IMG/VR virus record: IMGVR_UViG_3300024348_000029
Span: 340-64,339 of that record
Origin: a virus
Taxonomy: Duplodnaviria > Caudoviricetes
Strand: one strand, 5' to 3'
Length of the DNA stretch: 64,000 nucleotides
A model generated the notes under the pieces. That model was given only the letters and a program-made list of their open reading frames with translations, did not search any database and was not told the origin of the DNA. Position 1 is the stretch's first letter, and every line of letters starts with the position of its first letter. The position numbers and the translations under genes are program-made. Of this stretch, positions 9,000 through 9,148 are shown one piece after another.

Positions 9000-9027
9000 A
9001 AAAAAAAGTCTTACATTTCTGCAAGAC
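9000..9027 (-). terminator. attenuator terminator of tRNA operon C (Tyr/Ser/Ser/Asn/Cys/Trp/Phe)
   Basis: GTCTTGCA-GAAA-TGTAAGAC + T8 between leader ORF and tRNAs. Confidence 0.9.
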
Positions 9028-9061
9028 CTTCTTTAGAGACAAATTTATATTGTTAAATATG

Positions 9062-9136
9062 TCATACAGTAGAAGTCCCGCCCGAACGAATCGACCAGAA
9101 ATTATAATTACTATATGAACATACTATTGCTTTCAT
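9062..9136 (-). CDS. attenuator leader peptide C: MKAIVCSYSNYNFWSIRSGGTSTV
   Basis: 10 consecutive codons (C S Y S N Y N F W S) all read by the 7 downstream tRNAs; GCGGGACTTCT can pair with the terminator 5' arm. Confidence 0.9.
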   Translation of the reverse strand: MKAIVCSYSNYNFWSIRSGGTSTV

Positions 9137-9140
9137 CCTG

Positions 9141-9148
9141 TAAATATA
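9141..9148 (-). promoter_or_regulatory. Bacteroidota-type -7 promoter element (TATATTTA), operon C
   Basis: matches TAnnTTTG/A; 4 nt upstream of leader ATG. Confidence 0.75.

Follow-up and report, generated by a model that had tools for sequence, protein, structure and literature searches.

The region described here lies on a 64,000-nucleotide (nt) stretch of viral DNA (the window; positions 340 to 64,339 of record IMGVR_UViG_3300024348_000029, Duplodnaviria, Caudoviricetes), which comprises nearly the whole of the 64,339-base IMG/VR virus record (completeness 37% according to CheckV) and carries three clusters of transfer RNA (tRNA) genes, each preceded by a compact leader unit. The DNA runs containing the stretch were marine metagenomes, and no RNA run is listed among them. 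A terminase, a portal protein and a major head protein are encoded in the window; the terminase has only distant kin among named phages (at most 28% identity), namely crAss-like, Cellulophaga and Flavobacterium phages, whose hosts are all Bacteroidota. The 25 tRNA genes are located on the minus strand between positions 12842 and 7496 and provide for all 20 amino acids, in most cases through a single species (two each for Leu, Ser and Arg). Three of them have CAT anticodons, one of which may be Ile2 or initiator.

The unit in front of the third cluster (unit C) consists of a promoter-like site, a short leader open reading frame (ORF), whose 3' part contains an antiterminator strand, and an intrinsic terminator (Table 1). 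The minus-strand sequence quoted in the original prediction was found to be exact: TATATTTA occupies positions 9148..9141 and is followed by cagg and then by the ATG at 9136. Codons 6-15 of the leader (TGT TCA TAT AGT AAT TAT AAT TTC TGG TCG; the sensor run) had been claimed to be read exclusively by cluster 3 tRNAs, and all 10 of them are, with seven of seven species represented. The proposed pairing of GCGGGAC-TTCT with AGAA-G-GTCTTGC was recovered as the RNAduplex optimum (9082..9070 with 9033..9020, -13.5 kcal/mol). The parts of the unit, their order and their spacing are directly visible in the sequence, and the codon-tRNA match, co-variation and alternative pairings given below were obtained by computation on it. 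With every proposed element present and the same design recurring in other units, the attenuator reading is supported, and unit C is likely to be a ribosome-mediated (leader-peptide) transcription attenuator of a tRNA operon, which would sense tRNA supply.

Table 1. Features of the tRNA region, in window coordinates.
Feature	Coordinates	Strand	Description
Promoter-like site C	9141..9170	-	TTG, 19 nt, TATATTTA; -7 box ends 4 nt before ATG
Leader ORF C	9062..9136	-	24 codons and TGA (9064..9062); MKAIVCSYSNYNFWSIRSGGTSTV
Sensor run C, codons 6-15	9092..9121	-	C S Y S N Y N F W S
Antiterminator strand C, codons 19-23	9070..9082	-	complementary to 9033..9020
Intrinsic terminator C	8996..9031	-	12-bp hairpin 9031..9004, -13.2 kcal/mol, and T-run
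5' half of tRNA-Tyr gene	8952..8984	-	cut just after anticodon loop; from alignment
Inserted cassette	8462..8945	-	promoter-like site 8945..8916 and HNH endonuclease ORF 8911..8462
Cluster 3	7496..8458	-	seven tRNAs
tRNA-Tyr, cluster 3	8458..8375	-	ARAGORN default
tRNA-Ser-TGA, cluster 3	8240..8154	-	ARAGORN -ps90
tRNA-Ser-GCT, cluster 3	8146..8064	-	ARAGORN -ps80 only
tRNA-Asn, cluster 3	8057..7985	-	ARAGORN default
tRNA-Cys, cluster 3	7976..7902	-	ARAGORN default
tRNA-Trp, cluster 3	7828..7755	-	ARAGORN -ps90
tRNA-Phe, cluster 3	7569..7496	-	ARAGORN default
Unit A	12860..13039	-	precedes cluster 1
Promoter-like site A	13039..13010	-	
Leader ORF A	13005..12916	-	MIKVLRHIELLEQPLQCNGRNPVFGVDGL; sensor 12993..12958, LRHIELLEQPLQ
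Antiterminator strand A	12953..12935	-	
Terminator A	12888..12864	-	followed by T-run
Cluster 1	12842..12050	-	Pro, Glu, Gln, His, Leu-TAG, Leu-TAA, Arg-ACG
Unit B	11330..11533	-	precedes cluster 2
Promoter-like site B	11533..11503	-	
Leader ORF B	11473 (GTG) or 11461 (ATG) to 11390	-	(V)NSVMDIATIVRVGGIDKISSGGTVAG; sensor run 11464..11417
Antiterminator strand B	11417..11397	-	
Terminator B	11363..11335	-	followed by T-run
Cluster 2	11329..10026	-	Ala, Lys, Ile, Gly, Met, Met, Asp, Thr, Val, Arg-TCT, Met

The other two tRNA clusters of the window are preceded by similar units (A and B), and each leader matches its own cluster. When the codons preceding the antiterminator strand were scored against the codon sets of clusters 1, 2 and 3, the numbers of matches were 11/4/1 for leader A, 0/15/2 for leader B and 1/5/11 for leader C, at background shares of 0.20/0.56/0.24 (determined from 12,522 codons of 20 long window ORFs). 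Codons past the sensor zone were at background level (for example 1 of 6 in leader C and 0 of 15 in the leader of L014, one of the related loci introduced below). The chance that 17 random codons, drawn according to the phage's own usage, cover all seven cluster 3 species was 2.0e-4; for coverage of the whole respective cluster by random codons, the values were 9e-5 (A), 6e-3 (B) and 2e-4 (C). Across all six frames, the 64-kb window has 5 runs of at least 10 codons drawn from Y, S, N, C, W and F. Sensor-like runs are rare but not unique, so the argument rests on position, full coverage and co-variation.

In total, 22 units were curated in eight phage genomes, 19 of them in seven genomes other than that of the window, including the cultured Cellulophaga phage phi17:2. 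Terminase-based scans yielded the informative loci L011 (77% identity) as well as L013 and L014 (~42%), and further informative loci were L032 (from metagenomes), L067, L076 and L089. A collinear tRNA array was identified in the cultured Cellulophaga phages phi17:2 and phi4:1 by blastn of the tRNA region, with the leaders of these two phages being one synonymous change apart; phi4:1 (duplicate of phi17:2) and L075 (duplicate of L076) were left out of the unit count. In all 22 units, a short ORF heads the predicted transcript upstream of the tRNAs and a hairpin with a T-run is present. The first tRNA begins 4-26 nt past the hairpin in 20 of them, which leaves no space for a promoter, so that the tRNAs would be expressed only via read-through.

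All tRNA species that ARAGORN called in a cluster are covered by its leader in each of the first 13 units; among nine further units this holds for seven (20/22 overall). The probability of full coverage by chance was 5e-5 to 3e-2 per unit (first 13 units), and codon enrichment reached P <=0.01 in 21 of the 22. Both L011 and phi17:2 have the tRNA partition of the window, and their leaders have the codon classes in common, not the peptide sequence (C-type sensors: SCSYNSFNSWFF in L011, NYCTYNNSNWSFSY in phi17:2). A different partition is found in the clade of L013, L067, L089 and L076, and the leaders follow it: the cluster {Pro, Met, Ala, Tyr, His, Phe, Gln} is preceded by the leader QHNAFYFHPMAF, the cluster {Arg-TCT, Lys, Met, Gly, Asp, Asn, Ser, Ser, Thr, Ile, Val} by KNISINTGINKTDKVDSR (18 of 18 codons matched) and the cluster {Glu, Leu, Leu, Trp, Cys, Arg-ACG} by LLECRLWLEE. 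Losses of tRNA genes are mirrored as well. L011 is devoid of Lys and Arg-TCT tRNAs and its leader B contains no K or R; L032 lacks tRNA-Cys and has Leu in place of the sensor Cys codon; L067 has no Arg-ACG and no Arg codon in the sensor. In L011, where Leu-TAG is the sole Leu tRNA, the Leu codons of the leader are all CTN. Arg codons are CGN when the cluster contains Arg-ACG or Arg-GCG and AGA when it contains Arg-TCT. The Arg codon box thus fits the isoacceptor wherever a cluster has an Arg tRNA, which suggests that tRNA species, and not amino acids, are sensed.

The distribution of the units was assessed in several searches. No tRNA array was present at 19 of the 22 loci of the first terminase scan, 23 of the 24 loci of the metagenome scan provided no new array (L032 being the sole addition) and 44 of the 57 new loci of a later terminase scan had fewer than two tRNA calls. 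For the 13 later loci with tRNAs, the leader-terminator scanner printed units only for L067, L069, L075, L076 and L089. No unit was found in L095, L099 and L100, distant relatives in the large terminase subunit (TerL) with scattered tRNAs (matched fractions of the best ORFs 0-0.25), and L064, L065, L070, L088 and L101, with two or three tRNA calls and some of these at contig ends, were outside close inspection. The scanner recovered 12 of the first 13 units, missing terminator B and merging clusters 1 and 2, and reported no unit when applied to the tRNA arrays of five other phages (Aeromonas D6, Bacillus Tsamsa, Vibrio Hades, Synechococcus S-CAM7 and Bacteroides crAss001). Searches with the exact terminator string of A and B gave no matches, a pattern derived from the E/L/W/C/R leaders returned only two already known loci, the phi4:1 TerL retrieved only phi4:1 itself, and a TerL alignment had no match in bacterial genomes. 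For the tRNA region, megablast against phages retrieved nothing beyond a tRNA-Thr piece in Stenotrophomonas phages; the matches of the L013 array in blastn were confined to scattered tRNAs, and for the protein of 88 amino acids encoded between clusters 1 and 2 no relatives were detected among viral contigs.

The 3' part of the leader ORF is conserved as an RNA pairing and not as a peptide. The strand complementary to the terminator 5' arm begins at leader codon 15.7-20.7 in 21 of the 22 units. Its duplex in unit C (-13.5 kcal/mol) compares with -9.4 +/- 2.2 kcal/mol in shuffled sequences, and the antiterminator duplex beats shuffles in all units (at most 31 of 500 dinucleotide shuffles as good in 13 units, at most 11 of 300 mononucleotide shuffles in nine). 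In leaders of a second type, GGGTCAAGC pairs with GCCTTGACCC (L013), GTCCGAGGC with GCCCCGGAC (L067) and GTCCG(T/C)GGC with GCCTCGGAC (L089 and L076). Six aligned leaders of a third type form a 7-bp antiterminator in which 90.5% of the cells are paired, as compared to 27-65% in slid controls, and three of the seven pairs change on both sides. The complete leader RNA of unit C folds at -40.2 kcal/mol (z = -4.87, none of 200 shuffles as good), and in addition to the terminator it forms a long hairpin in which the sensor codons are joined to the 3' part of the ORF. In this hairpin of the ribosome-free RNA, seen in both the minimum-free-energy and the centroid folds, the sensor codons pair with 9082..9070 and the end of the ORF, the antiterminator strand being taken up by the last of these codons; by its modelled structure it is the 1:2 element of a classical attenuator.

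The original prediction held that a ribosome at the stop codon would mask the antiterminator strand and one stalled in the sensor would not. A 28-nt ribosome mask was applied in folding nascent RNA cut before the terminator 3' arm. In leader C, the terminator 5' arm was sequestered with a probability (P) of 0.78-0.82 for A-site positions on codons 4-15 and of 0.40-0.53 for positions between codon 16 and the stop codon. In most other units, sequestration falls directly after the last sensor codon, in several of them more steeply than in C, for instance from 0.97 to 0.07 in L014; unit 1 of L076 shows hardly any drop. The 1:2 hairpin is weak or absent in some other units, and the free RNA there already reaches P = 0.6-0.9. 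The proposed masking held in these nascent-RNA folds, where a ribosome on the sensor codons leaves the antiterminator pairing free and one further along blocks it. Folding of the full-length leader at equilibrium did not discriminate. As the terminator is kept in the equilibrium fold, the switch would have to be kinetic, as in trp. The terminator scan of a general tool listed terminator A, not B or C.

The pattern TTG-N18-20-TAnnTTT[GA] has four matches on the minus strand between positions 6500 and 13500, located before leaders A, B and C and before the HNH ORF. In the whole window, 20 matches were counted as opposed to 11.9 +/- 3.3 in shuffled sequences (shuffle maximum 20), which represents a mild enrichment. 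The shorter pattern TAnnTTTG-N4-ATG alone was not enriched (3 matches, a number reached by 15 of 100 shuffles), and a sigma-70 promoter scan was uninformative (23 sites found, 19.9 expected). In a flavobacterial study (PMC9723704), the sigma-A box TAnnTTTG is placed at -12 to -5. With the box at this distance, transcripts A and C would start on the A of the ATG, so that leaderless mRNAs are predicted. A -7 box exactly 4 nt before the ATG was also seen at the ORF of 88 amino acids that follows cluster 1 (12023-12037, minus strand) and at the HNH ORF (8916-8923, minus strand), and leaderless transcripts may be common in the window phage.

Several further observations concern unit C and its surroundings. 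The 15-nt string AGTTGTATATTTACA occurs twice on the minus strand (9326-9340 and 9139-9153), with one copy preceding an ORF of 46 amino acids with a hydrophobic stretch (9312..9172) and the other one constituting the promoter of leader C. Contigs of other marine runs differ at few positions; two of the variants, each seen in single low-depth contigs, are 9076 T>C and 9146 A>G. The former is an A-to-G change in the antiterminator strand that keeps the pair as G-U and replaces Thr with Ala, and the latter affects a free position of the -7 box. In most units, the leader stop codon is separated from the terminator by an A/C-rich spacer that is loosely conserved and resembles ACATATA.

According to the proposed mechanism, host RNA polymerase would start at a Bacteroidota-type promoter, with the transcript beginning at or next to the AUG of the 24-codon leader, and the ribosome would reach codons 6-15, which call solely for the seven tRNAs encoded downstream. 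Scarcity of any of these charged tRNAs would stall the ribosome in the sensor and melt the hairpin holding codons 19-23. The freed antiterminator strand could then pair with the emerging terminator 5' arm, so that no terminator would form and the polymerase would enter the tRNA genes. If the tRNAs are plentiful, the ribosome would cover the antiterminator strand up to the stop codon, allowing the terminator to form and the transcript to end ~140 nt from its start. The outcome would be negative feedback, with each tRNA group made on demand. What we infer from the arrangement is that the leader is translated, that ribosomes stall on it, that ribosome and polymerase are coupled, and in which direction the unit responds.

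Unit C differs from most other units in the distance to its tRNAs, with 545 nt separating terminator C from the first intact tRNA gene. The gap contains the 5' half of a tRNA-Tyr gene, which marks the original position of the first tRNA, ~14-20 nt past the terminator as in other units. It is followed by a cassette composed of a promoter-like site and an HNH endonuclease ORF (PF01844, E 2.2e-5), and the intact tRNA-Tyr gene starts 4 nt past the HNH stop codon. The cassette split the original first tRNA, and its insertion looks like intron-less homing into a tRNA cluster. In this respect it resembles SegB of phage T4, an endonuclease gene in a phage tRNA cluster, with the parallel (PMC2330249) being limited to the insertion and not extending to an attenuator.

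The tRNA calls within cluster 3 are genuine but of unequal quality. With the Rfam tRNA model, Trp scored 30.9 bits (cut-off 29), Ser-GCT gave no match, and Ser-TGA was detected only as a sub-threshold tRNA-Sec match (25.2 bits). Both Ser genes can be aligned with the Ser tRNAs of relatives and have deviant T-loops (GTCGGGT and ATCAGGG within 8064-8240, minus strand; TTCGA in relatives); the Ser-TGA tRNA of phi17:2 is likewise deviant. Both Ser tRNAs of the window may be non-canonical or decaying.

A number of points weigh against an attenuator that senses the tRNAs of its own operon. Both Ser tRNAs and Trp of cluster 3 are weak calls with odd T-loops, and the HNH gene and promoter-like site in the 545-nt gap mean that cluster 3 may bypass attenuator C. 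The duplex energy of unit C was reached by 28 of 500 dinucleotide shuffles, so that the support from C alone is modest, and sequestration in C merely halves once the ribosome leaves the sensor, ribosome-free RNA giving P = 0.41. Equilibrium folding of the full leader retained the terminator at any ribosome position in 8 of 10 units, including C. Leaderless mRNAs were a minority (5.5%) in one flavobacterium, according to PMC9723704. The leader of unit 2 in L076 keeps its I, N, T, G, K, S, V and D codons, and only Arg-TCT follows (1 of 18 codons matched); the L069 leader keeps H, F, Y and M codons, and the tRNAs called behind it are those for Ala and Gln alone; leader A of L011 has a CGA codon and no Arg tRNA; and one called tRNA is uncovered in each of two units. 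Non-cognate codons make up the first 3-4 positions of the leaders and also occur singly further in (Ile in A, Asn in QHNAF). In addition, homologous leaders are non-independent, and the codon background applied to all phages was that of this window. At the L076 locus (4632-8375), as well as in L075, the second cluster breaks off after Arg-TCT and gives way to ~3.5 kb in which no tRNA is reliably called, and the leader has kept its full codon list and gained extra Arg codons near the end of the zone.

The alternative that concerns unit C specifically is that it has become a relic in the window phage, with cluster 3 driven by the promoter of the HNH cassette since the insertion. The promoter-like site at 8945..8916, 4 nt before the HNH ATG, the position of tRNA-Tyr 4 nt past the HNH stop codon and the tRNA-Tyr half left behind the terminator all fit this view. 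Yet leader, antiterminator and terminator C are intact, the sensor still covers seven of seven tRNAs, L011 and phi17:2 have the corresponding unit without an insertion, and read-through from the leader promoter would still contribute to expression, which makes loss of function unlikely. The device could instead be the same and its signal a different one, namely amino-acid starvation perceived through tRNA charging, with output rising when the host starves. Classical attenuators are established to respond to charged tRNA, and since a stalled ribosome does not distinguish an absent from an uncharged tRNA, the leader structure itself is non-discriminating. We nevertheless consider starvation sensing somewhat less probable still than a relic, because the leaders match their clusters at the level of isoacceptors (Arg CGN/AGA, Leu CTN with Leu-TAG alone) and not of amino acids, and because the regulated products are tRNAs, which are unable to relieve amino-acid starvation.

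Two further explanations were considered. The short ORFs might be functional small proteins or chance ORFs and the hairpins ordinary insulating terminators, given that restricted-codon runs do arise by chance (the five cluster 3-type runs of at least 10 codons in the window) and that one phi17:2 leader is annotated as a hypothetical protein. It is the codon class, however, and not the peptide, that is conserved and that tracks the tRNAs through two partitions and several losses; the 3' part of the ORF is kept as an RNA pairing while the peptide changes, and a terminator that always acts, placed 4-26 nt ahead of a tRNA array with no promoter of its own, would shut that array down. This explanation is accordingly very improbable. 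Hardly any weight is given to a T-box-like scheme, the least probable one considered, in which uncharged tRNAs would bind the leader RNA directly without translation. Although leader codons by construction complement the anticodons of the tRNAs encoded behind them, the region 5000-15000 gave neither a T-box nor any other cis-regulatory Rfam match at E values up to 1, and the 10-18 different in-frame codons, with a start codon where the transcript is predicted to begin and a stop codon, are in keeping with translation and not with a single specifier.

The attenuator reading was also compared with known systems. A cmscan search of positions 5000-15000 with E values up to 1 retrieved no Rfam leader family (Trp, His, Leu, Thr) and no T-box; tRNA models aside, its matches were chance-level microRNA and plastid families only. 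As generally known, the trp, his, leu, thr, ilvGMEDA and pheA attenuators of E. coli similarly have regulatory codons in a short leader ORF, 1:2, 2:3 and 3:4 pairings that exclude one another and an intrinsic terminator before the regulated genes, and thr and ilv also sense several amino acids together. They differ from the present units in that here tRNAs rather than biosynthetic enzymes would be regulated, in phages of Bacteroidota and with an isoacceptor-specific match, that 4-11 tRNA species are each represented by mostly 1-2 codons in place of runs for few amino acids, and that a leaderless transcript is predicted. In E. coli, the pheST attenuator, whose output is likewise a component of aminoacyl-tRNA supply that relieves the sensed stall, controls a synthetase through a single-amino-acid sensor and is cellular, whereas the units described here are viral. 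T-box riboswitches also translate tRNA status into a choice between terminator and antiterminator before genes of aminoacyl-tRNA supply, but do so by binding one uncharged tRNA via a specifier codon and without translation. Mycobacterial leaderless polycysteine short ORFs (bioRxiv 10.1101/834739) are reported to constitute a translation-dependent sensor at the transcript 5' end as well, though one for Cys only, with protein-coding targets and in another phylum. Full-text literature searches returned no paper on leader-peptide control of tRNA genes.

The units also bear on existing annotations, as the phi17:2 and phi4:1 records list leader ORFs and one tRNA under hypothetical proteins. In phi17:2 (L051; NC_021798.1), leader B is annotated within the hypothetical protein gp077, gp078 overlaps an ARAGORN tRNA-Ser(TGA), and a tRNA-Lys annotated in phi4:1 is unannotated (sites 2986-3105, 3322-3394 and 4927-5028).

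The units bear on two wider questions, namely by what means phages regulate the tRNA genes in their genomes and what they carry such genes for. One possibility, put forward tentatively, is that the genes form a self-regulating replacement set for all 20 amino acids, organised in three separately switched operons that would each open only when ribosomes stall for lack of one of the operon's own tRNAs. Such a set might counter tRNA depletion, the likely trigger being a loss of host tRNAs during infection, by host shut-off or tRNA-cleaving defence nucleases. Cultured Cellulophaga phages (phi17:2 and phi4:1) carry the units, which makes the design testable now, and it would represent a natural compact sensor of tRNA availability at the isoacceptor level. 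If the attenuator reading is true, tRNA genes can be under leader-peptide attenuation, which, as far as is known and as judged by the full-text searches, has been described only for amino-acid and synthetase genes, a single leader would sense up to eleven tRNA species, and the codon list of a leader would tell which tRNAs the phage handles as one supply group.

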